From a virus (taxonomy: Duplodnaviria > Heunggongvirae > Uroviricota > Caudoviricetes), in IMG/VR virus record IMGVR_UViG_3300032335_000499: a stretch of DNA of 64,000 nt; one strand, 5' to 3'. The translations under genes were made by a program, and so were the position numbers. Positions 2,408-29,619 of this stretch are shown one piece after another (position 1 is the stretch's first letter; each line of letters opens with the position of its first letter). The notes under the pieces were generated by a model. That model made no database searches. It was not told the origin of the DNA and saw nothing but the letters and a program-made list of their open reading frames with translations.

Positions 2408-2669
2408 TCTAGAACCCGTTTCGGAGACTCGTTACATATATGAGTCTCCAAACGGGGGAAAGACCGTTTACGCTAGAGAAATTGGTTCAGATAAGAGAGT
2501 TATCGTGAAACAGGATCCTTCCATTATTGAACGTCAACAGACAGCTATGAGGTCCAATCGGCTACTGACTATACTAAAGAAGTCACAAACCGATACTACG
2601 CTCAAGGATGCTCTAGAGGCGCTTGAAGCACTATATATCATTAAGTACGGCGATGCTAAAGACAATTGA
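2388..2669 (+). CDS. hypothetical protein
   Basis: ORF overlapping the VWA stop; IYESPNGGKTVYARE motif. Confidence 0.7.
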   Translation: MTIVKSDLEPVSETRYIYESPNGGKTVYAREIGSDKRVIVKQDPSIIERQQTAMRSNRLLTILKKSQTDTTLKDALEALEALYIIKYGDAKDN

Positions 2670-2892
2670 AGATATCAACCTACATACTTGGTTCATGAAC
2701 CGAGAATTAGACTTTGCCCCTAGTCATTTTGTGGGTTCTAACACACCTATAACTGATGAATCTAAGATTTGGATTCAAGAGAAGTTGTCCGGTCGATATG
2801 CTATGGCTTCTATAGAAAATTCTTTTCTAGAGTACGCTCCCTCATTTGAAGACCCTAAGGAAGCATTGTTCTACGAACTTACTTGGGGATGA
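2653..2892 (+). CDS. small protein, FxxExDxxxFxLxW paralogue family
   Basis: C-terminus FEDPKEALFYELTWG. Confidence 0.75.
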   Translation: MLKTIEDINLHTWFMNRELDFAPSHFVGSNTPITDESKIWIQEKLSGRYAMASIENSFLEYAPSFEDPKEALFYELTWG

Positions 2893-3125
2893 AACCCATA
2901 CGTATCAGTTCTGGTACGGGAAAGACCCCACAGGAAGTGTTGAAATGGCTTGACGCCAATATTGGTAAATCCAATTACAGAAACACTACTGATATTGTAG
3001 GCACAGAGTATATTGGGCAAGGCTGGTCTGCTCATTGGAATCATTACGGACATTATGGTTGGTTCCTAGATGTAAAATTCAATGACCCAAAACATGCCGC
3101 ATTCTTCACTCTACGCTGGAAATAA
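2889..3125 (+). CDS. small protein, FxxExDxxxFxLxW paralogue family
   Basis: C-terminus FNDPKHAAFFTLRWK; ATGA overlap. Confidence 0.75.
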   Translation: MKPIRISSGTGKTPQEVLKWLDANIGKSNYRNTTDIVGTEYIGQGWSAHWNHYGHYGWFLDVKFNDPKHAAFFTLRWK

Positions 3126-3184
3126 AATATTCTATAGCTATTTTCCAATTAAATACTTGTGCTAAATCACAAGGAGAAAAGCAA

Positions 3185-3901
3185 ATGGCTTTTACAAGAC
3201 ACGTTGGAAAACATGGAGACCGCAAAGTTGCAGTCGTATTCCGTGAAGTTCCAGGCGAACCGCACATGGCATTGGTCGTGTACACAGAAATTTTAAACCG
3301 AACTATCCATGATCCACTGGTTCAGTGCATTGAAAGTGATATCGGACAGAATAGCGAAGACCTCGCTCTTGCACTTAACCGCTCATATACCACTGATGGT
3401 CAAATAATTCTTCAAAAACTTCACGCTGAAGGCATGTTGAAGAAGGTTCAGACCGAATTGATTGTTATGACACCTCAGCCTAATACAAGAATCAAGTTGA
3501 ATGAACTTAACAAGATTCTTGATCAAATGAAGATGGGTGAAGATGCAGTTAAGAAGTTAGCTGAAATGGACAACCAATTGGGTATGCAGGATCCAATGGC
3601 AGTCGCAAGACGTATGCGCGGCGACAAGGATGCATTTACCCCTGAAACTATTCCGGGAAATAAACAGGCACCGACTGGTATCGATGCATCTGGTGATTTG
3701 TTAGGTGACACTACCCTTGCTAATAATCTTCGTCAACAGGCTTTAAGAATGGCAGCAGAAGCTAAAGGTCTGCTAGCGGAGTCAGAAAGAATGTTGAGTC
3801 AAGCAGATACATTAGCACCTAGTGCAGCAGCTACCACCGCAGTCGGAGTTCCATCTAAGAAGACAAGAGGGCGTCCTAAGAAAACTGTATCAGTTGCTTA
3901 A
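3185..3901 (+). CDS. hypothetical phage protein
   Basis: 238 aa, AAGGAG RBS, TAAATA upstream, C-terminal RGRPKK AT-hook-like tail. Confidence 0.8.
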   Translation: MAFTRHVGKHGDRKVAVVFREVPGEPHMALVVYTEILNRTIHDPLVQCIESDIGQNSEDLALALNRSYTTDGQIILQKLHAEGMLKKVQTELIVMTPQPNTRIKLNELNKILDQMKMGEDAVKKLAEMDNQLGMQDPMAVARRMRGDKDAFTPETIPGNKQAPTGIDASGDLLGDTTLANNLRQQALRMAAEAKGLLAESERMLSQADTLAPSAAATTAVGVPSKKTRGRPKKTVSVA

Positions 3902-3920
3902 ATTTAGTAAGGATTAATGA

Positions 3921-4217
3921 ATGTCACCCGAGTTTATCCAGAAGTGGGAAAACTTATTACAGGATGTTGACAAGCAAAAAGTACCAATTGAATTTATCAA
4001 AAAGATAATTCTTAGGCTTCAAGGTAAAAGACAACGTACTATTAATATTGAAAAATTGTTAGATCAGGGACTAGATCCGGATCATGTTGAAGATATTATT
4101 AGTAGAAAGATTATTGACCTTGATGACGAAGTTATCGGAATTGAATTTTTACTTAATGTTCAAAGCATTGCAGATGTAGTGCAACCAGAAACAGACAAAT
4201 TACTGAATGGACTATGA
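3921..4217 (+). CDS. hypothetical protein
   Basis: 98-aa ORF with AAGGA RBS. Confidence 0.75.
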   Translation: MSPEFIQKWENLLQDVDKQKVPIEFIKKIILRLQGKRQRTINIEKLLDQGLDPDHVEDIISRKIIDLDDEVIGIEFLLNVQSIADVVQPETDKLLNGL

Positions 4218-4675
4218 AATTAATATTAGCATGTGACCCTAACGGGGGAATAGGCTATCAAAACAAGTTGCCCTGGACTAACGTCCGGGGCGATTTGCCA
4301 AGATTTAAACGCTTAACTGACGGGCAAAACGTCATTATGGGACGCAACACTTGGGATAGCTTACCAAAAAAACCACTTCCTGGCCGACTCAACTTTGTCG
4401 TATCTTCTAGTGAACTAGAAGCGGAACATCACAATGTAATTAGAGTGCCGGACATGGAATTCAATCAGCCCGATGATGTAGAATTTTGGATAATAGGTGG
4501 AGCCAGACTAGTTGAAACTTCTTGGAAAAACATAAACGAAATTCATTTAACCAAAGTATATGACCATTACGCTTGCGATACCTTCATAGATTTGCTATAC
4601 ATAGAACATAACTATGTAAGGACCTACAGCGAAATGTTTCCTGACCATACATATGAGATTTGGAAGAAAAAATGA
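4214..4675 (+). CDS. frd: dihydrofolate reductase
   Basis: GIGYQNKLPW, IMGRNTWDSLP, PLPGRLN, IIGG motifs. Confidence 0.95.
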   Translation: MKLILACDPNGGIGYQNKLPWTNVRGDLPRFKRLTDGQNVIMGRNTWDSLPKKPLPGRLNFVVSSSELEAEHHNVIRVPDMEFNQPDDVEFWIIGGARLVETSWKNINEIHLTKVYDHYACDTFIDLLYIEHNYVRTYSEMFPDHTYEIWKKK

Positions 4676-5502
4676 GGCAATATCACGATTTACTAGAAGA
4701 CATACTAAATAATGGTGAAATCAAAGATGACCGAACAGGCGTCGGCACTATCAGCGTCTTCGGTCGGCAATTACGATTTGACTTGACAGTAGGTTTTCCT
4801 GCTGTAACAACTAAGAAGTTAGCATGGAAATCAGTAGTTAGTGAACTACTGTGGTTTATAGAAGGGAGCGGAGATGAGAGAAGACTTGCAGAAATTTTAT
4901 ACGGATCCAGAGATCCTGAACGTAGTACGATATGGACAGGAAACGCTCAAGCAGCTTATTGGACGCCAAAAGCGAGATATGACGGGGATTTGGGACGAGT
5001 ATACGGTGTACAGTGGAGAGACTGGCGAGGAGTTGACCAACTCTCAAATCTAATTGAGGGCATCAAGAATGACCCTAACGGTCGTAGACATATCATCACT
5101 GCATGGAATGTAGATGAACTAGATAAGATGGCGTTGCCTCCCTGCCACGTTCTCGCACAGTTTTATGTTAGTAACGGTAAACTAAGCTGCCATATGTATC
5201 AGCGTAGCGTTGACGTATTCCTTGGCTTACCCTTCAACATCGCCAGCTATGCATTGCTTACTCATATGATTGCGCAGGTATGTGACCTAAAAGTAGGCGA
5301 ACTTATCATTTCTACTGGTGACACTCATATCTACAGTAACCATATTGAACAAGTTAAAGAGCAGCTTTCACGAGAAGAATACCCATTACCTCTCCTTTTT
5401 CTTGATCCTAAGATAAAAAACATTGACAAATTCATAATGGATGATATACTGTTATTTGACTATCAGAGTCATGGAACTATTAAGGCTGATATGGCAGTAT
5501 GA
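4672..5502 (+). CDS. thyA: thymidylate synthase
   Basis: DRTGVGT, ELLWF, MALPPCH, YQRSVDVFLGLPFN, HIYSNH. Confidence 0.97.
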   Translation: MRQYHDLLEDILNNGEIKDDRTGVGTISVFGRQLRFDLTVGFPAVTTKKLAWKSVVSELLWFIEGSGDERRLAEILYGSRDPERSTIWTGNAQAAYWTPKARYDGDLGRVYGVQWRDWRGVDQLSNLIEGIKNDPNGRRHIITAWNVDELDKMALPPCHVLAQFYVSNGKLSCHMYQRSVDVFLGLPFNIASYALLTHMIAQVCDLKVGELIISTGDTHIYSNHIEQVKEQLSREEYPLPLLFLDPKIKNIDKFIMDDILLFDYQSHGTIKADMAV

Positions 5503-5738
5503 AAACAATTGTTGCTCATCGCTTCACCGTCGGAGACGTTGAAGACCCTGATATCTATGCTGCCGAACCTCTTTGGGAATGGCAGAATAGTGAAGCAGGT
5601 AAGTGGGCAATGGAAAATTGTACTGAAACTCCTAGTTGGCATCGTGATATAGATGCAGCTAGATTTGGCTATAGTTACCAAATAAGAATTACCTTAACCC
5701 CTAAGCAACTCGTATATTGGAAATTGAAGTATGACTAG
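5499..5738 (+). CDS. small protein, divergent member of the C-terminal-motif paralogue family
   Basis: WAMENC helix and C-terminus LTPKQLVYWKLKYD. Confidence 0.7.
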   Translation: MKTIVAHRFTVGDVEDPDIYAAEPLWEWQNSEAGKWAMENCTETPSWHRDIDAARFGYSYQIRITLTPKQLVYWKLKYD

Positions 5739-6018
5739 AGAAGAAATTATCAACAGCATGTGCTTGACCTTTCGTCACGATTACGGACTTGTAATCAGTG
5801 AAGACGATAGAATGTACACGCTTAACTCGGGTATGACAGAACTAGAACGACAGGGGTTATTCAACACTATGTCACAAGTTTTTGACCATCACTTTGCTAC
5901 TTCATTAGAAGAATATCGCAAGGTCAACGAAGGTGAATTCATTACTATTCCAAAGAGTGCTGAACATGCAAAAGCTATGATGGGCGTTGCACAATGGTAC
6001 CTAGATAACCAAGGATGA
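5731..6018 (+). CDS. hypothetical protein
   Basis: 95-aa ORF overlapping both neighbours. Confidence 0.7.
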   Translation: MTREEIINSMCLTFRHDYGLVISEDDRMYTLNSGMTELERQGLFNTMSQVFDHHFATSLEEYRKVNEGEFITIPKSAEHAKAMMGVAQWYLDNQG

Positions 6019-6980
6019 GAATGCTAGTAACAGGTGGCCTAGGCTTTATTGGTCACAATGTGGTTTCTAAGTTAGAAGACTTAGGTCATGATGTTCTAAT
6101 CATTGACAACATGACTGATTACGGTATCATTCCAAAAAATGAAATGGATTACCTACTAGACGAAAGAATCAAGAAGATTCGGTCGGTGTGTACTCCGCTA
6201 CCCATTGAAAACAAGGATGCCATAGACAACATTTTTAAAAGCTTTAAGCCAAACGTTGTCATTCATTTAGCAAGTTTTCCCCGTCAGAAAGTAGTGAACA
6301 GCAATCCGTCATTTGGCGCCCGAGTAATGATTGAGGGCCTGTTGAATCTTTGCGAAGCTTCAAAACGCAACAACGTTGAGAAGTTTGTGTATGTGAGTAG
6401 TAGCATGGTCTATGGTGACTTTGCTGATGATGTAACAGAGGATGCTGAGTGTAAGCCTCAAGGTATGTACGGTATTATGAAACTAGCCGGTGAATGGCTA
6501 GTGAAAGATTATCATGACAGAGGGGCATTTGATTATACTGTCATACGTCCTAGTGCGGTGTACGGGCCTTGTGATGTAGAAGACCGTGTGGTGTCAAAGT
6601 TTCTTTTGGCAGCGTTACGTGACGAAACTATCATGGTAAATGGTTCGGAAGAAACGTTAGACTTTTCGTATGTTGACGATGTGGCTGATGGCATTGTAGC
6701 AGCTACGTTGTCGCACAATACAGCCAACAAGTGCTATAACGTCACGAGAGGAGCTTCTAGGACACTATTAGAAGCAGCAGAGCTAGCAGTTAAAATTGCA
6801 GGCAAGGGTACAATTGAAGTTAGGGACAGGGATTCGTCCTTTCCCAGCAGGGGAGCATTGAATATTGATGCTGCTAGACAAGACTTTGATTTTGACCCTA
6901 AGGTTGATATAGAAGAAGGATTTCAAAGATACTATGAGTATCTTTGTAGTTCCCCATTTTGGAAGGATAAAATTAAATGA
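6015..6980 (+). CDS. NAD-dependent nucleotide-sugar epimerase/dehydratase (extended SDR)
   Basis: TGGLGFIG, SSSMVYG, YGIMK (YxxxK), RPSAVYGP. Confidence 0.92.
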   Translation: MRMLVTGGLGFIGHNVVSKLEDLGHDVLIIDNMTDYGIIPKNEMDYLLDERIKKIRSVCTPLPIENKDAIDNIFKSFKPNVVIHLASFPRQKVVNSNPSFGARVMIEGLLNLCEASKRNNVEKFVYVSSSMVYGDFADDVTEDAECKPQGMYGIMKLAGEWLVKDYHDRGAFDYTVIRPSAVYGPCDVEDRVVSKFLLAALRDETIMVNGSEETLDFSYVDDVADGIVAATLSHNTANKCYNVTRGASRTLLEAAELAVKIAGKGTIEVRDRDSSFPSRGALNIDAARQDFDFDPKVDIEEGFQRYYEYLCSSPFWKDKIK

Positions 6981-7189
6981 GCGATTTAGAAACTGCCTTA
7001 AAAACGCATGATTGGACTTTGGCTGGATATAAATCCAGAGTTAATGTAGACAAGTTGATGAAAGAAAATCCTGAACAATCATCGGCGCTATGGGAACAAT
7101 ATTGTCCGTGGTCTGATACTAACGGCGGATTACTTGAATGGTGGGCAAAAAATGATAATTCCGCATTTCGGCCTAGCAAGACAGTATAA
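6977..7189 (+). CDS. hypothetical protein
   Basis: 70-aa ORF with ATGA overlap. Confidence 0.6.
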   Translation: MSDLETALKTHDWTLAGYKSRVNVDKLMKENPEQSSALWEQYCPWSDTNGGLLEWWAKNDNSAFRPSKTV

Positions 7190-8219
7190 TAACCTTCAAG
7201 ATGAGTTGCTAGACGCAACCCATGATGCCTTAAAGGAAGGGGTGCTGATTAATGGCCCCTACACTGCCGCATTAGAATCATGGCTATGTAATTACACAGG
7301 CTGTAAGTTTGCTACAGTCACTCACAGTGGAACTCATGCACTAGAATTTATCGCAGGCTATCATTACGATTTGTCATTTTTAGCAGGGGAAGAAGAACCG
7401 CCGCGCATTCGCATTCCAAACTTAACTTTTCCCGCCACGTTGAATGCGTTTGTCAGTACAGGATGGGACGTTGAACTAGTTGACACGGACAATAACGGAT
7501 TGTTTAAGTTTGATGATGACTATGAAGATGGTTTTAACAGTTACACCTGCTTTGTAGGATTGTATGGTGCTAGCCCAAATCGTAGCTTCTATTCTAATAC
7601 AATCGTAGACGGTGCGCAGCACTGGTTAGCAGTAAACCAACATCAAGTCGGTGATGCTATGGCTATCAGTTTTGATCCTACTAAGAACTTACCGAGTAGC
7701 GGCAATGGCGGCGCAATAGTAACAAATGATCAATCACTGTATGATTGGGTAAATGTCATGAAGAACAATGGCAAGTTTGAACATTACTATCCCGGCACTA
7801 ACAGTAAGATGAGTGAATTAGAATGCGCCCATTTGTTGGTTAGGTCCAAATATATTGATAGATGGCAAAATCGCAGAGAAAAAATACGAAATTACTACTT
7901 GGATAGATTTGAGGATTTGCCTTTTAGATGTCTCAGTGAACCTTTTGATAAACATGCCGATCAAAAGTTTGTTATCTACACCCAAACTCGAAATGAGCTA
8001 CATGAGTATTTACACGGTAACAAAATTGAATCTAGGATTCATTATCCTCAGGCATTAAGTGAGTTACCTATTGCCAAAGATATTATCAAAAAGCCAGACA
8101 TGATAAGCACCAGCATAGCATTGTCTCGCGGGGTGTTGAGTCTTCCTATCTATCCCGAACTTTCGGATAGTGAAGTAGAGGCGGTTGCAGACACGGTTTG
8201 TAAGTTTTTTGATAAATAA
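7152..8219 (+). CDS. DegT/DnrJ/EryC1/StrS PLP-dependent sugar aminotransferase
   Basis: SGTHAL, VDGAQ, SFDPTKNL (PLP lysine), GGAIVT, LSLPIYP. Confidence 0.92.
   Translation: MIIPHFGLARQYNNLQDELLDATHDALKEGVLINGPYTAALESWLCNYTGCKFATVTHSGTHALEFIAGYHYDLSFLAGEEEPPRIRIPNLTFPATLNAFVSTGWDVELVDTDNNGLFKFDDDYEDGFNSYTCFVGLYGASPNRSFYSNTIVDGAQHWLAVNQHQVGDAMAISFDPTKNLPSSGNGGAIVTNDQSLYDWVNVMKNNGKFEHYYPGTNSKMSELECAHLLVRSKYIDRWQNRREKIRNYYLDRFEDLPFRCLSEPFDKHADQKFVIYTQTRNELHEYLHGNKIESRIHYPQALSELPIAKDIIKKPDMISTSIALSRGVLSLPIYPELSDSEVEAVADTVCKFFDK
8213..8218 (+). promoter_or_regulatory. T4-late-like promoter
   Basis: GATAAATA 7 nt before the ATG at 8226; motif recurs before structural genes. Confidence 0.65.
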
Positions 8220-8225
8220 TACGTT

Positions 8226-8687
8226 ATGAACATTTACTGGATACTCACCCTTCTCCCCGTATGGATCATTCACTCAGTATTAGGACTGGGTGTACTAGGT
8301 CTATTGATTGCATTCTTTGTGCAACGCATTCCATTCGTCAAAACATATGGATATATGATTAAGATTGTGTCTTCAATCTTGTTAGTGTTGGGCCTATTCT
8401 TGCAAGGTGCATTAGCGTATAAAGAAAGCACTGCACTCGCAGTAGCAGAGCTTGAAGCTAAGTTAGCTAAAGCGGAAGCAAAATCACAGAAAACCAATGT
8501 AGAAATTGTTGAGAAGATCGTCACTGATACACAAGTCATTCGCACCAAAGGCAAGACTATTACTGAATATGTTGACCGCGAAGTTATCAAGTACGAAACC
8601 AAATGTCCACTTCCTACTGAGGTAATCCGCGCACACAATGCTGCTGCTACGATGGATCCTAGTAAGCTTGAAGGAGACAAGAAGTGA
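8226..8687 (+). CDS. inner-membrane spanin (Rz-like)
   Basis: N-terminal TM helices, coiled periplasmic region, C-terminal CPLP...HN; adjacent lipoprotein gene. Confidence 0.7.
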   Translation: MNIYWILTLLPVWIIHSVLGLGVLGLLIAFFVQRIPFVKTYGYMIKIVSSILLVLGLFLQGALAYKESTALAVAELEAKLAKAEAKSQKTNVEIVEKIVTDTQVIRTKGKTITEYVDREVIKYETKCPLPTEVIRAHNAAATMDPSKLEGDKK

Positions 8688-8956
8688 AGAAATTAATGCT
8701 TCTCCCGCTTGTTCTACTATCAGGTTGCAGTATTACCGCAGTTCCAGTAACACCTAATTTTCCAGAGGCTCCGGCAACATTACAAGAAAAATGTGCTGAT
8801 TTAAAAGAAGTTGCTGAAGGTGCTTCACTCACAGAATTCACTAAAATAGTAGTAGAAAACTATATTCTATATCACGAATGCAAAGTCAAAGTTGAAGGCT
8901 GGAACGAGTGGTATACTAAGCAAAAAGCTATTTTTGAAGAAGCTACCAAAAAGTAA
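8684..8956 (+). CDS. outer-membrane spanin (Rz1-like lipoprotein)
   Basis: Lipobox LLSGC, Pro-rich linker, two further Cys (C...NY..YHEC). Confidence 0.75.
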   Translation: MKKLMLLPLVLLSGCSITAVPVTPNFPEAPATLQEKCADLKEVAEGASLTEFTKIVVENYILYHECKVKVEGWNEWYTKQKAIFEEATKK

Positions 8957-9002
8957 TCTTGAGTCTAGTATGATAAATACTAGATAACAACGGAAGATTA
9001 CT

Positions 9003-9542
9003 ATGTCCACCCAAGAAATTATTAATATTGGTACACTACCTAACGATGGTGAAGGTGATCCGCTAAGAGTAGCGTTTGGTAAGATCAATAATAACTTCGC
9101 TAACCTGTTCCCTACTGCAATCAACACTAGCAGCTCCTATTCAGTTGGAGACGCTCCTGGACAATTGATATTTGAAACTGATGCTAACACATTTACCCTA
9201 GGCCAATTTTATGTATATGCGGCTGACCCTACTGGTAATAATAGCCAAAGTATGCAATTAAACGCACAAATTAATCAAGATTTAGATGATGCAAAGTTTA
9301 GTGCTGTAGGTACCTCAGTATTCGGAAATGCATTAACTAGCTATAGTATGCAGGTAGTGGGAGGTAATGTACAATTACTTGCAGACCCAATTCAAGATAC
9401 GACTATCTTTCACTTCATAGGTTCTCAGATTATTTGGACAGGTGCTAATGTTGCCGGCTTACTGCTGGGAATAGATGGTTATGTAGATTCAGTAATTTCT
9501 ACTGAAAATGCCTTGAATGTTGAAACTGAACAGTCATTCTAA
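9003..9542 (+). CDS. virion protein with T4 gp9/gp10-like N-terminus
   Basis: INIGTLPNDGEGDPLRVAFGKINNNF motif; GATAAATA upstream. Confidence 0.7.
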   Translation: MSTQEIINIGTLPNDGEGDPLRVAFGKINNNFANLFPTAINTSSSYSVGDAPGQLIFETDANTFTLGQFYVYAADPTGNNSQSMQLNAQINQDLDDAKFSAVGTSVFGNALTSYSMQVVGGNVQLLADPIQDTTIFHFIGSQIIWTGANVAGLLLGIDGYVDSVISTENALNVETEQSF

Positions 9543-9937
9543 TGAGAGCATATGAGTTCATAACAGAATCGGTTACTGATGGGTTAAGTGTTGCATCCTA
9601 CGCACTACCGAATACCTATGTCATTCCTGAATTGAAAAATAATGACTTCTATGAATTGTATAGATTCGGCGTAGCAATTGCAGATGTCCGTGGAACAAGC
9701 GGCCCCGATGACGGTGTTCAAAATGAGTTCAAACACGATTTTAAAGCGGAAACTGCATGGGGTGAGAATCAGGTAGTATCTTCTGAATTTGATGCTGACA
9801 TTGGACAACTCATTGACCAGGCATTAGCAAAAGTAGGCAAGCGTGGCAAAAAATCAGTAAGTACGCCAGGTAGCGATGAGATACCAAATACTGGTACGCA
9901 GTCTACTCTTAAGCCTTTTAAAGGGTATAAACGATGA
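9542..9937 (+). CDS. putative internal head protein, paralogue 1
   Basis: MRAYEFITE N-terminus; similar to the next two ORFs. Confidence 0.65.
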   Translation: MRAYEFITESVTDGLSVASYALPNTYVIPELKNNDFYELYRFGVAIADVRGTSGPDDGVQNEFKHDFKAETAWGENQVVSSEFDADIGQLIDQALAKVGKRGKKSVSTPGSDEIPNTGTQSTLKPFKGYKR

Positions 9938-10679: not shown

Positions 10680-10709
10680 TTACTAGCTAGCTACTGCATA
10701 AGTAATTTC

Positions 10710-11419: not shown

Positions 11420-11447
11420 ACTCCCACTGCTTAGTGGGAGTATTTTT
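11420..11447 (+). terminator. intrinsic terminator (possibly bidirectional)
   Basis: ACTCCCACT-gctt-AGTGGGAGT with an A-run before and T-run after. Confidence 0.7.
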
Positions 11448-22272: not shown

Positions 22273-23726
22273 ACGAAGTAAAGATCATAATCAAAGACGA
22301 AGTTAATGTAAAAATCGAGGGTCTTGAAGTAGGCGACCGTCGAGCATTGATGAAGATGTTTGAGTTTGAAAAGCCAGGGGCTAGATATCTCCCGGCTGTT
22401 CGTCTTGGACGATGGAACGGAAAGATCAGCTATTTCAGTTTGGGTGGCAGTTCGTATGTCAATCTACTTGAGCAGATCATCACATATCTGTATGATAAAG
22501 GATATGACATTGAACTTGTAGATTTGCGGCAATCACATGATGAACTTAAGTTCGACCGCATTAAAGAAGATAGCTTTTCAGAAACAGTGTGGCCAAAAGG
22601 TCATGAACGTGAAGGTCAACCTATCGTACTACGTGACTATCAGGTTGAGATTGTTAACAACTTCTTAGAGAATCCTCAATGCTTACAGGAAGTTGCAACA
22701 GGCGCTGGTAAGACGCTGATGACTGCTGCTCTATCTAAGTCCGTAGAGCACCTAGGACGCTCCCTAGTGATTGTCCCCAACAAGAGTCTTGTTACGCAAA
22801 CAGAAGCAGATTACATCAATTTAGGATTGGATGTCGGTGTCTACTTCGGTGACCGTAAAGACTATGGCAAGACTCATACTATCTGCACATGGCAAAGCTT
22901 GAACAATCTGTTTAAGAACACAGCCAACGCAGGAGAAGAAACACTTGACGAATTTTTCTTTGAAGATATTGCTTGTGTTATTGTTGACGAAGTTCACATG
23001 GCTAAGGCTGATGTACTCAAGACGATGCTTACAGGAGTGTTCAGCAACATTCCTATTCGCTGGGGACTGACAGGAACCATTCCTAAAGACAAGATGGATC
23101 AAGTATCATTGCTTGTATCACTTGGTCCCGTTATCGGTAAGCTATCAGCAAAAGAGTTACAGGACAAGGGTGTACTCGCACAATGTCATGTTAACATTGT
23201 TCAGCTTAAGGATAAGGTCGAGTTCACTAATTACCAGTCAGAATTGAAACATCTGCTAGAAGATTCAAATCGCCTTGATACGATTGCTGCACTTATCGAA
23301 AAGGTGAATCTGACTGGAAACACTCTCGTACTCGTTGACCGAGTGAACGCAGGAAAAGAAATCGTAAGCAGATTAGGTTCCAATGCAGTGTTCGTCAATG
23401 GCGGCACTGGTCTAACAGAAAGAAAGGCAGAATATGATGAGGTTGCCACAAGCGACGATAAAATTATTGTCGCAACGTACGGCGTTGCGGCTGTCGGTAT
23501 TAATATTCCTCGGATCTTTAATTTGGTTCTTATCGAGCCTGGTAAGTCGTTTGTACGAGTTATTCAGTCGATAGGCAGAGGTATTCGTAAAGCAGAAGAC
23601 AAGGACCATGTTCAAATTTGGGACGTTACAAGTTCTTGTAAGTTCGCAAAAAGACACTTGACACAACGCAAGCAGTTTTACAAAGAAGCCAACTATCCTT
23701 TCAGTATAGAGAAATTGGATTATTAA
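22269..23726 (+). CDS. uvsW: SF2 DNA helicase UvsW-like
   Basis: LRDYQ, ATGAGKT, DEVH, GLTGT, QSIGRGIR. Confidence 0.93.
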   Translation: MNEVKIIIKDEVNVKIEGLEVGDRRALMKMFEFEKPGARYLPAVRLGRWNGKISYFSLGGSSYVNLLEQIITYLYDKGYDIELVDLRQSHDELKFDRIKEDSFSETVWPKGHEREGQPIVLRDYQVEIVNNFLENPQCLQEVATGAGKTLMTAALSKSVEHLGRSLVIVPNKSLVTQTEADYINLGLDVGVYFGDRKDYGKTHTICTWQSLNNLFKNTANAGEETLDEFFFEDIACVIVDEVHMAKADVLKTMLTGVFSNIPIRWGLTGTIPKDKMDQVSLLVSLGPVIGKLSAKELQDKGVLAQCHVNIVQLKDKVEFTNYQSELKHLLEDSNRLDTIAALIEKVNLTGNTLVLVDRVNAGKEIVSRLGSNAVFVNGGTGLTERKAEYDEVATSDDKIIVATYGVAAVGINIPRIFNLVLIEPGKSFVRVIQSIGRGIRKAEDKDHVQIWDVTSSCKFAKRHLTQRKQFYKEANYPFSIEKLDY

Positions 23727-23730
23727 TAGC

Positions 23731-23759
23731 TTGACATATACAGTAAAGGTTGATAGAAT
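23731..23759 (+). promoter_or_regulatory. sigma70-type promoter, leaderless geometry
   Basis: TTGACA-N17-TAGAAT-N6-ATG. Confidence 0.75.
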
Positions 23760-23765
23760 AACATT

Positions 23766-24266
23766 ATGAGAATACTTACTTTAGAAAACGAAAGTTACAA
23801 TCTGGAAACACTTCCAGAGGAAATCGATGATTTGCTGTTTGCAATTCTAGATAATTCTACCCCAGCAAATGTTGATTATCACTTCATTCCGTTGATTTTC
23901 TTAGAATCATTCAACAGTCCTGCACTAGTGATTAAGGTTGCTGATAAGGTTATTAAGATGCCAATCGATTGGCAGATATTGATTGGAGAGCAAGAACATG
24001 GTGACTTAGAAACTTTACCGCTATCTAGTCTCAACGATAGAGGATTCAACGCTTTTCAGTTTAATCCGCGGACTTCATTCTCCCCCTCATTTCTTCCTAT
24101 TGAAATCTTAGATATCTACCCTGATGTTACTTGGTATGCACCTAGACTCAGAAATGGTCAGTTTTTGTGTGTACCGATTGACGAAGGGGAGCAACCGCGT
24201 TGTATCTATTTTGTCAAGGAGATTAGTAGGAACTGCGAAGTAGTAGATTATAGTCAAGTATTTTAA
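23766..24266 (+). CDS. hypothetical protein
   Basis: 166-aa ORF. Confidence 0.75.
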   Translation: MRILTLENESYNLETLPEEIDDLLFAILDNSTPANVDYHFIPLIFLESFNSPALVIKVADKVIKMPIDWQILIGEQEHGDLETLPLSSLNDRGFNAFQFNPRTSFSPSFLPIEILDIYPDVTWYAPRLRNGQFLCVPIDEGEQPRCIYFVKEISRNCEVVDYSQVF

Positions 24267-24268
24267 CA

Positions 24269-24433
24269 ATGAACAAATTAATTGCATTTTTAGTAGTAGT
24301 GTTAGCATGGCTTGTTATGCCCATCGTCATAGTAGGACTCACTATCGGTCTTATACTTAGTATTTTTTGGGCAGGGAGTCATGTACTCTATGCTTATATT
24401 CTTAGCGAACTCAACCAAAGGAAGAAATCATGA
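24269..24433 (+). CDS. small membrane protein (not in ORF track)
   Basis: MNKLIAFLVVVLAWLVMPIVIVGLTIGLILSIFW..., 54 aa. Confidence 0.55.
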   Translation: MNKLIAFLVVVLAWLVMPIVIVGLTIGLILSIFWAGSHVLYAYILSELNQRKKS

Positions 24434-24555
24434 TTACTGAAACAATTATTAAGACTTTTCAAAAGAAGCATAAGCAGTCAGACGTTATGGGTGTAATTCG
24501 CACTCTCTATCCAAACGTTGAAATTTCTATTTTAAAGAAGAAAGGTAACAAGTAA
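24430..24555 (+). CDS. small basic protein (not in ORF track)
   Basis: 41 aa; ATGA and TAATG coupling on both sides; AAGGAAG RBS. Confidence 0.5.
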   Translation: MITETIIKTFQKKHKQSDVMGVIRTLYPNVEISILKKKGNK

Positions 24556-25154
24556 TGAAATATAAGATTGAAATCGGTGGACGCGGCGGCGAAGTTGTTA
24601 TCGGCTCCGTCAAGCGTGAATTCTATGACATTGTTGAAGAACATGAAATTGATTTTGAGGACTATGCTTGGAATGATGATTTCTTTGAGGAAAACGATGT
24701 AGAAATTGACGAAGATATCCGTCCGTTTCATCCCGGCGAATGGCACGAATGCGATGACCTTGCACATCACACTGGCCCTTCACTAGAAGATTGTTATATT
24801 ACTGTAATGGATGAAAACGATACAGTCATCTATGATGCACTAACTGCTGATGCTTTCTTTGATATGGGTGCAGACACAGAACAGACCGAAGAGATTTTCC
24901 CTCAAGAAACTCTTGAAGACGGTGACGTTTACTTCCTTGGACAAAGCATTGAGAAAGGTCACTTCCTCTCGTTTGAATGTGAAGATGAAGCTTTTGACCC
25001 TAAGAAACTTGTAATTACTACAGGTGATTATGACGGCTGGGAACTTGTTACTGGCTTAACCTACAACGGAGAATCACTTGATGATTTGGGTGACAGTTCA
25101 ACTGACGGTAAAGGTTCGGACTTTCAGCTTATCCTAGTAGAGAAAGATTATTAA
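24555..25154 (+). CDS. highly acidic hypothetical protein
   Basis: Roughly 28% D+E by manual count. Confidence 0.75.
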   Translation: MKYKIEIGGRGGEVVIGSVKREFYDIVEEHEIDFEDYAWNDDFFEENDVEIDEDIRPFHPGEWHECDDLAHHTGPSLEDCYITVMDENDTVIYDALTADAFFDMGADTEQTEEIFPQETLEDGDVYFLGQSIEKGHFLSFECEDEAFDPKKLVITTGDYDGWELVTGLTYNGESLDDLGDSSTDGKGSDFQLILVEKDY

Positions 25155-25573
25155 TGTCCTCAGGGCAAACATTGGGTCAAGCAAAATACAATAGAACGAT
25201 TGCTGGCATTCCTCCTAGTGCTGGTGTGTTTAGACTTGATACTGCTAGGACACGCAAGGTAAGAAAAGAGAAGGAAAAGAAGATGGGTTGGTTAAAACGT
25301 AAGTTTGCACAATGGTGCCGCGAAGCATGGGAAAATACTCGCCATGAGGATAAAACATATGCAGTAGTAGACTCTGTTCAATCTCGGAGCATTGATGCAA
25401 ACAAGTGCATTCGCTTCACTCTCTATCCGGCATCAGGCGGGTACGTTATTGAACACTACAAAAATGAACGTATGCGAGAAAGTGATGGGCCGACATTGAC
25501 TATTGTTAACAACGGTGACAGTATTGGTCAAGCGATTGAACACGTTATTGCAATTGAGTCGTTGAAGGCATAA
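25154..25573 (+). CDS. hypothetical protein
   Basis: 139-aa ORF. Confidence 0.7.
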   Translation: MSSGQTLGQAKYNRTIAGIPPSAGVFRLDTARTRKVRKEKEKKMGWLKRKFAQWCREAWENTRHEDKTYAVVDSVQSRSIDANKCIRFTLYPASGGYVIEHYKNERMRESDGPTLTIVNNGDSIGQAIEHVIAIESLKA

Positions 25574-26160
25574 TGGCTAAAGAGAAACTATCAGCAGACG
25601 AAAAGTTTGAGAAGGTTGAGTTTGACCTTTTCGATGCAATCGCGGCTATTGACCGCAAAGACTATTCGTATTATGATAGGTTGACTCCTGAACAGCAAAA
25701 GAAGTTTGTGCCATTCATGATGATACATTGGATTAGTGCAGTTAAAGGTAGTAAGGATATTCAATCTTATTATCTGCAAAGCACTGAATATCATGCTAAC
25801 AAGTATATGTTCAACGAGAATGTACAGAAGCATCCTAAGCTACAATGGTTGATGTTGTGTGCTGCAAGCCCGGGTATTGGCAAACAGTTTCATCAATGGA
25901 TTCCGCATATCCGTGACCGTGTTAGTAAGTTGAAAGAGGCTCCTAAGACCAAGGAGATTAAAGACTACTTTAAAAAGGTATATCCTAAATCAAGTGACAG
26001 TGACTTAAACATCATATCCGAAGTTTTTGTTGACAATCACAAGAAAAAGATGTATATTGCTAATAGATTCCCCGAATTAAAATTTGATGAGATTGAGTTA
26101 TTAAGTGAGCTTGTTACAGATAAAGAAATCGAAGAATACGAAAGAAAGCTCGGTAACTAA
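25573..26160 (+). CDS. possible clamp-loader small subunit (gp62-like)
   Basis: KKFVPFMMIHWIS...AN...HPKLQW...QWI pattern reminiscent of T4-like gp62. Confidence 0.45.
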   Translation: MAKEKLSADEKFEKVEFDLFDAIAAIDRKDYSYYDRLTPEQQKKFVPFMMIHWISAVKGSKDIQSYYLQSTEYHANKYMFNENVQKHPKLQWLMLCAASPGIGKQFHQWIPHIRDRVSKLKEAPKTKEIKDYFKKVYPKSSDSDLNIISEVFVDNHKKKMYIANRFPELKFDEIELLSELVTDKEIEEYERKLGN

Positions 26161-26836
26161 AACCGAGTTTTCTTGTGAGTTTTGCAAGCGGAGTTTCCAA
26201 CGAGAGACTACGATGATGAAACACCTTTGTGAAAACAAGCGCAGATGGCAAGACAAAGACCAGCCAGGTAATCGTATTGGATTTCAAGCTTGGGTAGAAT
26301 TCTACAAAAAGAATACTGCATCTAAAAAACCTAGAACATATGTAGACTTCACGAAAAGTGCATACTACATTGCCTTTGTCAAGTTCGGTCACTATTGCGT
26401 TGATATCAAGTGTATCAATGTAGTTAGGTATGCTGACTGGCTGTTGAAGAATCAGATAAAGATTGATAGTTGGTGCAGCGATACTAACTATACTAAATTT
26501 CTTATTGAGTACTTAAAGACAGAAGACCCGCTGGATGCTATCGCTCGTAGTATCGAAGCTACGATGACTATCTCTAAGGATTCAGGTATCGAAACCAAAG
26601 ATTGTCTACGATATGCTAATAAAAACAAATTAGCGTATGCTGTAACTACTGGCAAGATTAGTCCATGGATGCTTTATCAGAGCGAGAGCGGTGTCAAGTT
26701 TCTAGAAGAACTTGATGAAAGCCAGCAAAAGATGATTATCGACTACATCAATCCAGAACAATGGGCTATCAAGTTTAGACGTAACAACGAAATGGTGACA
26801 CAGGTCAAGGAACTGTTGAATGCCGCAGGCTATTGA
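26105..26836 (+). CDS. zinc-finger-containing hypothetical protein
   Basis: FSCEFCKRSFQRETTMMKHLC; start codon uncertain. Confidence 0.7.
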   Translation: MSLLQIKKSKNTKESSVTKTEFSCEFCKRSFQRETTMMKHLCENKRRWQDKDQPGNRIGFQAWVEFYKKNTASKKPRTYVDFTKSAYYIAFVKFGHYCVDIKCINVVRYADWLLKNQIKIDSWCSDTNYTKFLIEYLKTEDPLDAIARSIEATMTISKDSGIETKDCLRYANKNKLAYAVTTGKISPWMLYQSESGVKFLEELDESQQKMIIDYINPEQWAIKFRRNNEMVTQVKELLNAAGY

Positions 26837-27071
26837 TACTTACAAAGTAGTTCGTCGCGGTCAGAAATACTGCGTGAGAGTTCGTGGGGTACTTAACACT
26901 ACTGATTCATTTAACTGGTGTAAAGAACGTAACATGAGTTACTATATCAAACGGCGGTTTAATGTAGGATATACTTGGGATAGCGAAGGACTCTATAGAA
27001 GCCGCTGGGACTATGACTTTATTTTTGATGAGAAGAAAGAAGCACTGACTTTTATCCTAGGGTATCTATGA
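26820..27071 (+). CDS. small protein, FxxExDxxxFxLxW family
   Basis: C-terminus FDEKKEALTFILGYL. Confidence 0.7.
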   Translation: MPQAIDTYKVVRRGQKYCVRVRGVLNTTDSFNWCKERNMSYYIKRRFNVGYTWDSEGLYRSRWDYDFIFDEKKEALTFILGYL

Positions 27072-27286
27072 ACAAGTTTTTTCACATGGATGCTAAACTA
27101 TTTGATACATGGACTGATCAACTGATTGATAAGTCCTACGATTACCGGCAGATTGGTATTTCAAATGAACACTGTAATCAGATATCCGAACCGGAATACG
27201 GTCTACGATTGGTTAACTGGCCCGATAAAGCATTTGAAGTTGTAGATGAACATAAGTACACTGTCTTCCTACTGAGATACCGATGA
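27068..27286 (+). CDS. small protein, FxxExDxxxFxLxW family
   Basis: C-terminus VVDEHKYTVFLLRYR. Confidence 0.7.
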   Translation: MNKFFHMDAKLFDTWTDQLIDKSYDYRQIGISNEHCNQISEPEYGLRLVNWPDKAFEVVDEHKYTVFLLRYR

Positions 27287-27474
27287 GATTTAGTGTCTCT
27301 CCGCAGCATATGAAGCCATTCGTCATTGTTGTTGACTATAAGTTTTATGTTGAAAATGAGCAAGAGATTAAAGAATGGGCCAATCAGTGTACTCCGGGAT
27401 GGGCACTGACTGGCATGGTATTAGAGTTTAAGAACGAACAAGATAGGCTAGCATTTTTACTACGGTGGAATTGA
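27283..27474 (+). CDS. small protein, FxxExDxxxFxLxW family
   Basis: C-terminus FKNEQDRLAFLLRWN. Confidence 0.75.
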   Translation: MRFSVSPQHMKPFVIVVDYKFYVENEQEIKEWANQCTPGWALTGMVLEFKNEQDRLAFLLRWN

Positions 27475-27677
27475 TGTATACTCTGTGCATAAACGACAAG
27501 AAAAACCAGACTCAAGATTGGTGGTTTAACTTTTTGTTTAGCCTCAATGACATTGATGTGAAAACAGGATTAAAAAAGTGGGGAGGGAGAGTTGAGTATG
27601 ATAGAAGCGGATACAGCGATACTCTTATATTTGACAGAGAAGAAGATTTAGCATGGTTTCTATTAAAATGGACATGA
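27474..27677 (+). CDS. small protein, FxxExDxxxFxLxW family
   Basis: C-terminus FDREEDLAWFLLKWT. Confidence 0.75.
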   Translation: MYTLCINDKKNQTQDWWFNFLFSLNDIDVKTGLKKWGGRVEYDRSGYSDTLIFDREEDLAWFLLKWT

Positions 27678-27692
27678 TTAAGGAACGCTATA

Positions 27693-28334
27693 ATGAATAT
27701 ATGTGATATTGCATTGGTTATAAAAAACCATCTAAATGATGATGAATGCCAGCAACTAATAACAGAATACGAACGTAAAAAATTTACTGCTAGGCAAGAA
27801 CAGTCGCTTCATGCGTATGAGGAAAACACTAAGGTAAGTACCTTTAAAAGGATAACTATAAAAGAGACTAGTCAACATTATGATTTGATAAAAAACAAGA
27901 CAGAAAATGCATTGAAACTTTGGCTAGACTACTTGCAGAGTAAAAATATGTTTAGTGTTGCTTTGCTGCGTAATAATTTGCAATATACGACTCATGATTT
28001 CAGAATATTAAAATATGATGTTGGTAACTTTATACATCCGCACACAGATTGGGATCACTTCACCCATGCTAGTGTTTCATTAAATCTAAACGATGAATAC
28101 ACTGGTGGTGACTTTGTTTTTATGAATGGGGAACGTATAATATCTCTAGAAAAGGGAGACGCATTAGTATTTCCAGCTAACTTTTATTGGGTTCACGAAA
28201 CGAAACCTATTCTAACCGGCACCAGATACACTGTAAATTCATTTATATCAACCGTTCATTCATCCTCACAAAAAAAATTATTTGGAGAAATACACGAAGC
28301 CCAACAAGAGCATGAGAGAATATTTAAACTGTAG
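27693..28334 (+). CDS. 2OG-Fe(II) oxygenase (prolyl-4-hydroxylase-like)
   Basis: HTD, YTGGDF, VFP, HET, GTRY. Confidence 0.88.
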   Translation: MNICDIALVIKNHLNDDECQQLITEYERKKFTARQEQSLHAYEENTKVSTFKRITIKETSQHYDLIKNKTENALKLWLDYLQSKNMFSVALLRNNLQYTTHDFRILKYDVGNFIHPHTDWDHFTHASVSLNLNDEYTGGDFVFMNGERIISLEKGDALVFPANFYWVHETKPILTGTRYTVNSFISTVHSSSQKKLFGEIHEAQQEHERIFKL

Positions 28335-28359
28335 GGCATGATGTGCAGGAACATGAAAA

Positions 28360-28779
28360 ATGGACATGATTAAACAACTCAAAGAACGCTGGAAGGGCTA
28401 CAAAGAGAAACGCTTCCTAAAAAACTATGGGTGTAAGACTTGGCGCGAGTATGAACGCAAATATGATCCTGATGTTGGGTTTAGAGCAAGATGGGCCCAT
28501 ACCTATTATCATGGCTATCCTCATATACTTCCGATGGATCCTCAGAAATTCAGTGACTGGGCGCTCGGCGGCACAATATTTCAACTAGTTGACAAAATGA
28601 CGGAATGGTGTGAACAGAATTGTCAAGGTAAGTGGCGTAACGATTGGCATCGCGGCTTTTGGGATGCTCACGGAAATTACGAGGTCTACGAAATCAATGG
28701 TATAAGCGGTGGTGACACTATGTTTTTTGCATTCAAAGAAGAATCAGATTATGTTTGGTTTATGCTCACCTGGCAATGA
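28360..28779 (+). CDS. protein of FxxExDxxxFxLxW family with N-terminal extension
   Basis: WCEQNCQGKW; C-terminus FKEESDYVWFMLTWQ. Confidence 0.75.
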   Translation: MDMIKQLKERWKGYKEKRFLKNYGCKTWREYERKYDPDVGFRARWAHTYYHGYPHILPMDPQKFSDWALGGTIFQLVDKMTEWCEQNCQGKWRNDWHRGFWDAHGNYEVYEINGISGGDTMFFAFKEESDYVWFMLTWQ

Positions 28780-29015
28780 ATTACTACGATGAAAAGAATG
28801 GATGGGAACACACTAAGCCAGGTTGGTACGAAGTAGTGATTCCGGTGTATCAAATTCAAGAGGCACAGCATAAACACACTGAAATGTTAACCTGGATATA
28901 CGATAACATAGGGAAATGTGAACATCATTGTAGATGGCAGTTCGATTTAGGTAGCTTAAAATTTAAGTTTAGATATGAGAGAGATTATGTATGGTTCAAA
29001 CTAACATGGGGTTAA
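28776..29015 (+). CDS. small protein, FxxExDxxxFxLxW family
   Basis: C-terminus FRYERDYVWFKLTWG. Confidence 0.75.
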   Translation: MNYYDEKNGWEHTKPGWYEVVIPVYQIQEAQHKHTEMLTWIYDNIGKCEHHCRWQFDLGSLKFKFRYERDYVWFKLTWG

Positions 29016-29272
29016 GACCCGCAGCAGAAGAAATTATTGATGTAGTCCCGCAGACTCAGAAGATCAAGAAGAAGATTGCAGTGGATGGAGTCTGGGAAGA
29101 TAGAACTTTCATTCGCATCCCTATCGGTTCTGAACGTATGGGTCCAAGTGAATTAGAAGTTTGGTGTCGCAAAAGATTAGGTGGTCCCAAATATTTAAGT
29201 GAGTGGTTCAAGGTATCGGGATATATAGTGCTTGACGAAAAAACATACATGTTTTGGAAGTTATGTGAATGA
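29006..29272 (+). CDS. small protein, divergent family member
   Basis: WCRKRLGG; C-terminus LDEKTYMFWKLCE. Confidence 0.7.
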   Translation: MGLRPAAEEIIDVVPQTQKIKKKIAVDGVWEDRTFIRIPIGSERMGPSELEVWCRKRLGGPKYLSEWFKVSGYIVLDEKTYMFWKLCE

Positions 29273-29619
29273 ATACTGAGGGATTAGAACTTAAGTTTAC
29301 TAAGCTAGATGGTAGGCATCGTGGGCACAATGAGTTTACTCATTATGTTAGTGTATTAGAAAAACCCACTAGCAAGTATTACCAACCAATTAAATATTCT
29401 GTTGCGGGGTTTTTTGCATTAAGATCACTGTGTTCAGAAACATGGGGACTTTCATGTGAACGAGAACTATATCTACAGTTAAAACCTAAAGTCGCTAATA
29501 GTGTGTCAGATGTGCCTCTCAATAATCATTGGGTATGGCATACCGATCTAAATAACAATCAGTATAGAATATATCTAAAAAGTGATGAAGAAAGAGCTTG
29601 GTTGTTATTAAAATGGTAA
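29269..29619 (+). CDS. small protein, FxxExDxxxFxLxW family
   Basis: C-terminus YLKSDEERAWLLLKW. Confidence 0.7.
   Translation: MNTEGLELKFTKLDGRHRGHNEFTHYVSVLEKPTSKYYQPIKYSVAGFFALRSLCSETWGLSCERELYLQLKPKVANSVSDVPLNNHWVWHTDLNNNQYRIYLKSDEERAWLLLKW

Follow-up and report, generated by a model that had tools for sequence, protein, structure and literature searches.

A previously uncatalogued family of small phage proteins whose genes are exchanged as tandem cassettes in an uncultured giant T4-like lineage

The genomes of giant phages contain hundreds of small genes that lack annotation. Do the small genes that recur in the 64-kb stretch of phage DNA analysed here (the window), which belongs to an uncultured giant T4-like lineage, form one protein family, and if so, what might that family do? 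An earlier note on this DNA had claimed about 11 paralogues with a common C-terminal motif. These claimed members (names beginning with m) and the features around them are as follows.

1052..1080, plus strand: sigma-70-like promoter, intergenic, TTGACA-17-TATAGT in a 59-nt gap, ahead of the DUF2201 gene, orf2376, m2653, and m2889
1109..2407, plus strand: DUF2201 metallopeptidase/VWA-like gene upstream of m2653 (PF13203, E 1.9e-44; PF09967)
m2653, 2653..2892, plus strand: 79 aa, member; conserved behind the DUF2201 gene
m2889, 2889..3125, plus strand: 78 aa, member; accessory, absent or replaced in many relatives
m5499, 5499..5738, plus strand: 79 aa; separate conserved orthologue group with an invariant DVEDPDIYA
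23731..23759, plus strand: sigma-70-like promoter, intergenic, TTGACA-17-TAGAAT with TG, 11/12 matches; heads the gene string of the array
26105..26836, plus strand: left flank of the array, weak C2H2 zinc-finger match (PF12874, E 0.013)
m26820, 26820..27071, plus strand: 83 aa, probable member; first array gene
m27068, 27068..27286, plus strand: 72 aa, borderline member
m27283, 27283..27474, plus strand: 63 aa, minimal single-domain member
m27474, 27474..27677, plus strand: 67 aa, member
27693..28334, plus strand: 2OG-Fe(II) oxygenase gene inside the array, not a member (PF13640, E 2.3e-9)
m28360, 28360..28779, plus strand: 139 aa, member with a conserved N-terminal extension of ~60 aa
m28776, 28776..29015, plus strand: 79 aa, member; in 80/80 related loci; modelled
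m28991, 28991..29272, plus strand: 93 aa (88 aa from the ATG at 29006), member
m29269, 29269..29619, plus strand: 116 aa, member; accessory, in some relatives only
29613..31415, plus strand: right flank of the array, with a PhyH-type oxygenase (PF05721), an exonuclease, and the C-terminal half of a mini DnaE

All 11 ORFs lie on the plus strand, and the C-termini and W-x-x-x-N helices that had been quoted for them were verified in the sequence. The form [FVY]-x-F-[KR]-x-E-x-D-x-x-x-F-x-L-[RKT]-W was found at or near the protein end in 11/11, with Tyr replacing the last Trp in m26820, m27068, and m5499, and with C-E in place of x-W at the terminus of m28991. With an ungapped 16-residue motif matrix used in a leave-one-out manner, each of the 11 scored 7.5–30.4 bits, whereas none of 18,123 windows drawn from the remaining 86 proteins exceeded 6.4 bits and no C-terminus among those proteins exceeded −2.4 bits. 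Because pairwise BLAST among the 11 was almost always insignificant, profiles were needed to relate them. An iterative search with m28776 as its sole seed, made without a hand alignment, converged on a set of 239 sense-strand ORFs and placed all 11 claimed members within the top 12 of the 1,179 six-frame ORFs of the window; 382 relatives of m28776 were confirmed in IMG/VR. In single-seed searching, the final E-value was 7.3e-18 for m28360, 1.6e-10 for m27283, and 1.6e-8 for m2889, and m27474 was recruited at iteration 5 from the seed m27283. At E≤1e-3, 69 representatives out of 1.84 billion were retrieved, and in nearly all of them the match runs to the end of the protein.

We then relied on hhalign comparisons with two reference profiles that lacked the tested member and its orthologues. 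Similarity over the full domain, spanning the helix-1 Trp, the strand-2 Trp, and the C-terminal helix, was found at 79–99.7% with at least one reference profile for m28360 (99.7%), m27283 (98.4%), m2889 (97%), m29269 (94.7% and 94.8%, 49–54 columns), m27474 (93% and 95%), m2653 (82%, E 1e-5, and 94%, E 2e-7, over 45–48 columns, with a profile of 16 orthologues), and m28991 (85% and 79%, 41 columns). By this independent comparison, eight members are solid and m26820 (57% and 80%, 44–56 columns; dN/dS 0.06) is a probable member, whereas m27068 and m5499 are borderline. In m27068, similarity (24% and 38%) is confined to the C-terminal 18–19 columns; it is a conserved ORF (dN/dS 0.08) with an ATGA overlap on each side. 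For m5499, with 72 orthologous loci (alignment A4), the score is weak (20% and 41%), over a 50-column alignment that is in the right register, but the protein has an invariant block of its own and is at best a distant relative. The claim of about 11 paralogues thus stands as one real, diversified family, with m5499 and m27068 only borderline by hhalign. Nine or more of the ORFs (eight solid and one probable), which were linked above background by the motif matrix, the single-seed search, and hhalign, are genuine protein-coding genes that belong to a single family not catalogued before, and the divergence of the remainder beside a constant C-terminal element was confirmed.

What does the motif represent? 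AlphaFold2 models of two members, m28776 and m5499, were considered. In the m28776 model (pLDDT 88.5, pTM 0.77; order b1-a1-b2-b3-a2), the motif corresponds to strand 3 and helix 2, the final strand and helix of a compact, tryptophan-rich domain, and the motif helix has a pLDDT of about 95. Each protein is predicted to be essentially one beta-alpha-beta-beta-alpha domain of ~60 residues, with a three-stranded sheet and two helices, and the motif is C-terminal because the domain ends there; the separate C-terminal docking helix proposed in the earlier note was therefore not borne out. The m5499 model (pLDDT 93.7) has the order b-a-a-b-b-a, and the BFVD match lists of the two models barely overlap, and only in low-TM rows. 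The near-invariant residues are W40, W54, F65, F74, L76, and W78, together with the E-x-D that starts helix 2; aromatic or aliphatic residues occupy the most strongly conserved positions. On the basis of position and residue type, we infer that the conserved Trp, Phe, and Leu, together with the Trp residues of helix 1 and strand 2, form the hydrophobic core and that the E-x-D caps the last helix. The conserved charged residues E68, K69, D70, R77, and R53 might not pair in internal salt bridges but form an interaction patch common to the members. The N-terminal extension of m28360 is common to the relatives P0048, P0046, and P0015, and two-domain fusions occur (P0020, P0031, P0034, and P0039); a dedicated search recovered no longer fused forms, but this is a weak indication.

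How are these genes organized in related phages? We gathered 80 related IMG/VR loci with the subfamily alignment A3, in which all 324 domain matches lie on the sense strand and 323 of the 324 end ≤4 residues from a stop codon. The arrays comprise 1–11 genes, at least 29 sequence types are represented at this one slot, and pI ranges from 4.5 to 9.6 in the family; the diversification suggested in the earlier note is supported. The gene at the left flank is present in nearly all loci that extend that far, and at the right flank the PhyH-type oxygenase is variable and the exonuclease and dnaE are conserved across loci. Tandem cassettes have thus been gained and lost in one slot between the zinc-finger-like gene and the exonuclease/mini-DnaE genes, and related phages swap family genes in a mosaic pattern; m28991 is the usual partner of m28776, in most loci. 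Start/stop overlaps of 1–25 nt occur at 26820, 27068, 27283, 27474, 28776, 28991, and 29269, and also at the next gene (29613), in accordance with the coupled array of eight genes described earlier, but the array is split by the 2OG-Fe(II) oxygenase gene, an insert present only in loci L001–L003 and L008 and flanked by a duplicated 17-bp junction, AAAATGGACATGATTAA. The orthologue groups have gene-wide dN/dS values of 0.06–0.20, which is ordinary purifying selection and not the fast change that an arms race predicts.

Two copies had also been placed just behind MoxR/VWA genes. A VWA-like DUF2201 gene does lie upstream of m2653 and m2889, and the synteny of m2653 is kept down to 35% identity, but a conserved 97-codon ORF (orf2376) intervenes and no MoxR domain was found inside the 64-kb window, where DUF2201 is the only such gene detectable near the two copies.

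The family extends beyond this lineage. The copy-number search proposed in the earlier note gave 35 whole-genome profile matches in Sinorhizobium phage Phosso, 4 in Agrobacterium phage Atu_ph07, and 3 in Pseudomonas phage PA5oct (gp209, gp210, and gp237), which are true homologues by profile search; the whole genomes of T4, RaK2, GAP32, KVP40, and P-SSM2 yielded no family member (E≤0.01 for RaK2 and GAP32). All members inspected in the named phages are annotated as 'hypothetical protein'. These homologues show greater divergence, often with another residue in place of the last Trp, and a tail of 9–25 residues may follow the motif, which qualifies the earlier statement that it always ends at or near the C-terminus. 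In the PA5oct record, ESI-MS/MS notes mark some neighbouring genes and not gp209, gp210, or gp237. Atu_ph07 and Burkholderia phage BcepSauron are among the BFVD fold matches, the nearest Atlas clusters are 96–100% Viruses, and GTDB genome contigs, searched with the A3 pattern only, gave no confirmed match. So far, the family is found only in phage contigs and metagenomes.

Profile searches of Pfam, PHROGs, NCBIfam, and PDB sequences gave scattered single-member matches and no credible one; for the window members, none lay above a curated cut-off, and the best family-library match (PF18517, E 7.4e-5) occurred in 1 of the 55 sequences of the broad family alignment A2. Queries with the array or m28360 (megablast and tblastn) matched none of 50,697 phage records, and a search among proteins of near length returned 'hypothetical' proteins only. 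Among the passages returned by text searches, none in the 2021 jumbo-phage survey (PMC7824862) or in the PA5oct omics paper concerned this family or its three PA5oct members; wider full-text searching of the literature yielded nothing that was relevant by title or abstract.

What might these proteins do? Since the overlapping gene strings stand behind sigma-70-type promoters, the genes are probably transcribed early by the host RNA polymerase, with products in matched amounts, as the two consensus promoter matches suggest. Promoter-like sites at 26030 and 5423 were rejected as promoter evidence, as both lie inside conserved coding sequence. No conserved catalytic-looking residues were seen, and this, together with surfaces that range from acidic to basic and the two-domain fusions, suggests that the proteins are most likely small non-enzymatic binding modules. 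Such modules would perhaps form homo- or heterodimers via the open sheet face and may target various macromolecules of the host or the phage during takeover. We consider it fairly probable that the whole of this explanation is right, namely an uncatalogued phage domain family that is exchanged as tandem cassettes and supplies early non-enzymatic binders. A further reading, which we regard as rather unlikely, is that of a phage-specific exchangeable scaffold, in which coupled tandem copies would associate through the open faces of their sheets and so yield many combinations of homo- and heterodimers, with variable surfaces that would neutralise different host factors, defence proteins among them; it would explain the at least 29 cassette types at the slot and the 35 matches in Phosso.

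Could the resemblance among these short ORFs simply be due to chance or composition, some of them not being genes at all? The mostly insignificant BLAST scores and the continued weakness of m27068 and m5499 would fit such an origin, but for at least nine members it is contradicted by the motif matrix, the single-seed search, the 69 retrieved representatives, hhalign, the related loci, and dN/dS; it is already refuted for the core set, and we give it next to no credence overall. The idea that the conserved C-terminal helix docks one shared partner, for example a MoxR/VWA-DUF2201 machine, while the variable rest recruits targets, draws on the charged conserved residues on or beside helix 2 (E68, K69, D70, and R77) and on gene order: an m2653-type gene follows DUF2201 in the lineage of the window down to 35% identity, the order in Phosso is AAA-ATPase, DUF2201, and a family member, and in Atu_ph07 two of the four matches follow DUF2201, on its own strand, at a distance of 2.5–4 kb. 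However, the helix is predicted to lie within a compact domain (pLDDT about 95), the most strongly conserved positions are aromatic or aliphatic, and most copies lie elsewhere in the genomes, not near MoxR/VWA. Moreover, RaK2 and GAP32 carry DUF2201 without a family member at E≤0.01, and the PA5oct copies lie 56–73 kb from its DUF2201 gene; an obligatory linkage to DUF2201 is thus ruled out, the single shared partner put forward in the earlier note is unsupported, and we judge this docking model improbable.

We think it equally doubtful that the members are nucleic-acid-binding or replisome accessory proteins, with m28776 and m28991 assisting the neighbouring exonuclease and the split mini Pol III, a role comparable to that of the small subunits in bacterial Pol III. 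The m28776 gene, usually together with m28991, directly precedes the exonuclease/dnaE genes in most of the 80 loci, Phosso genes 135–137 are directly upstream of its DnaE-like gene, in PA5oct about 2 kb separates gp209 and gp210 from the Pol III gene, and the fold class includes RRM, ACT, DCoH, and Pcc1. Yet the fold matches are generic (Z≤6.7), the pI spread is wide (4.5–9.6), the 35 dispersed matches in Phosso fit one replisome role poorly, and no polymerase gene is close to the Atu_ph07 copies, which rules out a universal linkage to Pol III.

About ten small genes per 64 kb now belong to one definable domain family, with hundreds more genes in public data, a confident predicted fold, a mapped variable slot, and a phyletic range that covers PA5oct, Atu_ph07, Phosso, and the uncultured lineage of the window. 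Because PA5oct is culturable on a laboratory Pseudomonas strain, has published RNA-seq and virion proteomics, and encodes three members, function is directly testable. If the proteins do bind for host takeover or counter-defence, the slot would offer a ready-made list of these factors.

Do known systems resemble this family? Foldseek against the PDB returned nothing at E≤0.001, and VIA gave no Z≥8 for either model, its best Z being 6.7 with 74 chains at Z≥5; by the tool's own guidance, a Z below about 8, the level needed for trust, may reflect only a common arrangement, and the fold searches returned generic two-layer alpha/beta sandwiches only. The top Foldseek PDB match of the m28776 model is DCoH/pterin-4a-carbinolamine dehydratase (1uso; E 0.23, TM 0.58), which, like its RuBisCO-assembly relative acRAF (4low), is a small two-layer alpha/beta sandwich in which two helices lie on the same side of an antiparallel sheet; the VIA scores (1uso, Z 6.0, rmsd 2.9 over 65 residues; 4low, Z 5.8) are within the range of chance common arrangements. 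Proteins of the DCoH fold are protein-binding cofactors that form dimers or tetramers, but DCoH has an extra N-terminal strand and no sequence similarity to the family, and PF01329 gave no match at E≤0.1 in the 10 members scanned (m29269 excluded) or the 55 A2 sequences. The beta-alpha-beta-beta-alpha core is also found in Pcc1 of KEOPS (8up5_P and 3enc_A), ACT (5v0s), and MESD/Boca (3ofg and 2rqm), small dimerising or chaperone-like modules, and these matches (Z 6.1–6.7, rmsd 2.0–2.8 over 56–65 residues, 5–18% identity) are generic, below Z ~8, and give no functional inference. In its genomic behaviour, the family recalls the zinc-ribbon expansion of ~35 copies in Bacillus phage G, as treated in passages of Iyer et al. 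(2021, PMC7824862): the fold and the family are different, but in both cases a giant phage has a lineage-specific expansion of a very small domain, which varies among its relatives and has unknown or regulatory roles.

Do the eleven small ORFs, named here by their start coordinates, form a genuine family? All 11 were found in the window with the C-termini quoted in an earlier note, which had described them as paralogues sharing a C-terminal F-x-x-E-x-D-x-x-x-F-x-L-x-W motif. For each member, the last 16 motif residues were scored, ungapped, against a matrix derived from its ten fellow sequences. Members reached 7.5-30.4 bits; the other 86 proteins yielded 18,123 windows, the highest at 6.4 bits, and the top non-member C-terminus did not exceed -2.4 bits. 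The motif is carried by 11 of about 97 C-termini versus 0 of the 18,123 other windows and, therefore, neither its presence nor its position is attributable to chance. A MAFFT alignment of the 11 revealed two more conserved blocks, one being a helix in which a Trp is near-invariant (x-x-E-x-x-x-W-[CLI]-x-x-N), the other a second Trp; when all six reading frames of the window were searched with a profile built on the 11, no further member emerged.

As a safeguard against selection bias in the earlier note, we ran an iterative search seeded with m28776 alone against the six-frame ORFs of the window and 80 related loci. This search converged at 239 ORFs, each of them in sense orientation, and recruited m28360, m2889 and m27283 with final E values from 7e-18 to 2e-8; among the 1,179 ORFs of the window, all 11 ranked 12th or better. 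The orthologue alignment of each member was also compared with an independent m28776-seeded core and with a profile of database relatives only.

Profile-profile probability of membership, by ORF
m28360: 99.7%
m27283: 98%
m2889: 97%
m29269: 95%
m27474: 93-95%
m2653: 82-94%
m28991: 79-85%
m26820: 57-80%
m27068: 24-38%, over the last 18-19 columns only
m5499: 20-41%

By the matrix, the single-seed search and the profile-profile comparison, the family is real, and the proposed set of 11 paralogues holds for nine to ten of them.

Three of the ORFs lie outside the array, the family's eight genes at 26.8-29.6 kb. m2653, which lies behind DUF2201 and a 97-codon ORF, is kept in relatives down to 35% identity, and m2889 is an accessory gene among them. 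The 97-codon ORF itself (2376-2669) is 32-100% identical in relatives and had no match in Pfam. m5499 (5499-5738) belongs to a strongly conserved group of orthologues apart from the rest, in which DVEDPDIYA is invariant and is followed by W..W..S..GKW.ME; it had no match in Pfam, PHROG or NCBIfam. Its orthologues are found in 72 viral contigs (L105-L176) between g3921 or td and an NAD-dependent epimerase gene, before which m5499 is retained also where frd and td are missing. The m5499 model (pLDDT 93.7; strand, helix, helix, strand, strand, helix) resembles that of m28776 in general architecture; its BFVD neighbours are its own orthologues and scarcely overlap with those of m28776. m5499 represents a distinct family of small, highly conserved proteins.

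The window is coded almost wholly on the + strand and has a T4-type gene content; its large terminase shares 48-50% identity with its counterparts in Pseudomonas phage PA5oct and Sinorhizobium phage Phosso. Profile searches of Pfam, PHROGs, NCBIfam and PDB sequences gave no credible match to the family, which is undescribed within these libraries and the papers covered. The earlier note had proposed a profile of the 11 sequences as a check, and out of 1.84 billion proteins this profile linked 69 cluster representatives (E<=1e-3). They are mostly 61-160 aa long, almost every one matches through its own last residues, and four (P0020, P0031, P0034 and P0039) contain two complete domains per chain. 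Relatives from named sources are nearly all labelled 'hypothetical protein', and the closest Atlas clusters are 96-100% viral. Whole-record searches gave 35 matches in Phosso, 4 in Atu_ph07 and 3 in PA5oct (gp209, gp210 and gp237); in the PA5oct record, ESI-MS/MS notes accompany some neighbouring genes and not these three. T4, GAP32, RaK2, P-SSM2 and KVP40 had zero matches, and GTDB genome contigs, scanned with a pattern, gave no confirmed match. The family is widespread within one branch of giant T4-like phages. Phosso and Atu_ph07, both alphaproteobacterial jumbo phages, have a common neighbourhood of DUF2201, an RNA ligase and family members (PV764938.1, 163278-168694; MF403008.1, 198223-203542); Phosso additionally has an AAA-ATPase gene immediately 5′ of DUF2201.

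Across the 80 IMG/VR loci that surround m28776 orthologues, we found 324 domain matches; all are on the sense strand, and in 323 the stop codon is no more than 4 residues beyond the end of the match. The array holds 1-11 genes per locus and occupies a slot whose content varies by lineage between two borders:

26105-26836, left border: conserved gene with a weak C2H2 zinc-finger match
right border: exonuclease and mini-DnaE genes

Clustering of the slot members at 35% identity gives at least 29 groups, and shared groups keep their gene order. Identities are mosaic; in L010-L013, for example, m29269 is 100%, m28360 73% and the left flank 74% identical. Median dN/dS against orthologues is 0.06-0.20 for array genes and 0.06-0.08 for flanking genes; purifying selection acts on each gene of the array. 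A 2OG-Fe(II) oxygenase gene (27693-28334) inside the window's array occurs in only four loci and is bordered by a duplicated 17-bp junction, AAAATGGACATGATTAA (27667-27690 and 28358-28392), which restores the m27474 stop and the m28360 start; relatives without the gene have a single copy. The oxygenase gene was inserted as a cassette precisely where the m27474 stop and the m28360 start overlap. It is one of two distinct 2OG/PhyH-type dioxygenase genes among the small genes (the other at 29613-30305), the presence of both being variable in relatives. At the left border, ORF 26105-26836, which has GTG or TTG as its sole start options, overlaps ORF 25573-26160 by 56 nt; a hairpin on this overlap (26142-26174; 13-bp stem, then a T-run) might represent an attenuator or a frameshift site, or point to a mis-set start.

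Array genes overlap by 1-25 nt. Two promoters precede family genes:

1052: intergenic sigma-70-type promoter, ahead of DUF2201 to m2889
23731: intergenic sigma-70-type promoter, ahead of the closely packed run of genes that starts at 23766 and extends through the array

Promoter-like sites at 26030 and 5423 were discounted because they lie inside conserved coding sequence. The late-type motif ATAAATAC was seen before structural genes only. Motifs of this type (8973, 34503, 37698, 41306, 42724 and 62792; near-matches at 11445, 45385, 48590 and 57255) lie 20-40 nt 5′ of structural and late genes and probably represent this phage's T4-like late promoter. According to the PA5oct paper, rifampicin, an inhibitor of the host polymerase, fully suppresses progeny production, and its authors conclude that the phage depends on host RNA polymerase (PMC7318152). 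Given this reliance and the intergenic sigma-70-type promoters, early expression of the family is plausible.

An AlphaFold2 model of m28776 from a 55-sequence family alignment (pLDDT 88.5, pTM 0.77) contains a strand (18-23), a helix (27-44), two strands (52-57 and 60-65) and a helix (68-78). The shared motif therefore covers strand 3 and the C-terminal helix of one compact domain, and the "docking helix" envisaged in the earlier note gives way to the last helix of a small domain. Variability is lowest at W40 (helix 1), W54 (strand 2), F65 (strand 3) and F74, L76 and W78 (helix 2); conservation extends to E68 and D70, where helix 2 begins, and to N44, R53, K69 and R77. Trp makes up 5.4% of the members versus 1.5% of the window proteome. 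We infer that the conserved aromatics would form the core of a very small domain, with E-x-D as a helix cap. A Foldseek search of the PDB with the model gave nothing at E<=0.001, the best match being DCoH (E 0.23, TM 0.58). An exhaustive VIA search reached a maximum Z of 6.7, with Pcc1, an ACT domain, MESD/Boca and DCoH among the top matches, next to unrelated enzymes and ferredoxin-like proteins of de novo design. BFVD neighbours are uncharacterised phage proteins, some from Atu_ph07 and BcepSauron. The family is structurally ordinary: the predicted fold is a generic two-layer alpha/beta sandwich, ferredoxin-like but without the last strand, which indicates no function.

What might these proteins do? 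The single shared partner proposed in the earlier note might be linked to DUF2201, near which family genes recur in this lineage, Phosso and Atu_ph07; however, RaK2 and GAP32 carry DUF2201 without the family, and the majority of copies are located elsewhere. A role in the replisome is suggested by family genes adjoining the exonuclease and mini-DnaE genes in the window and in Phosso, but Atu_ph07 has no such adjacency, and the 35 dispersed Phosso matches are at odds with a single role of this kind. We consider it most likely that the family proteins are non-enzymatic binding modules, for which an effector or anti-defence role can be hypothesised. Conserved catalytic-type residues were not seen, surfaces are diverse (pI 4.5 to 9.6), and there are many paralogue types, each of them conserved. 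The translational coupling of the genes and the occurrence of two-domain fusions also argue for such modules, as does the fold class, which often dimerises via its open sheet.
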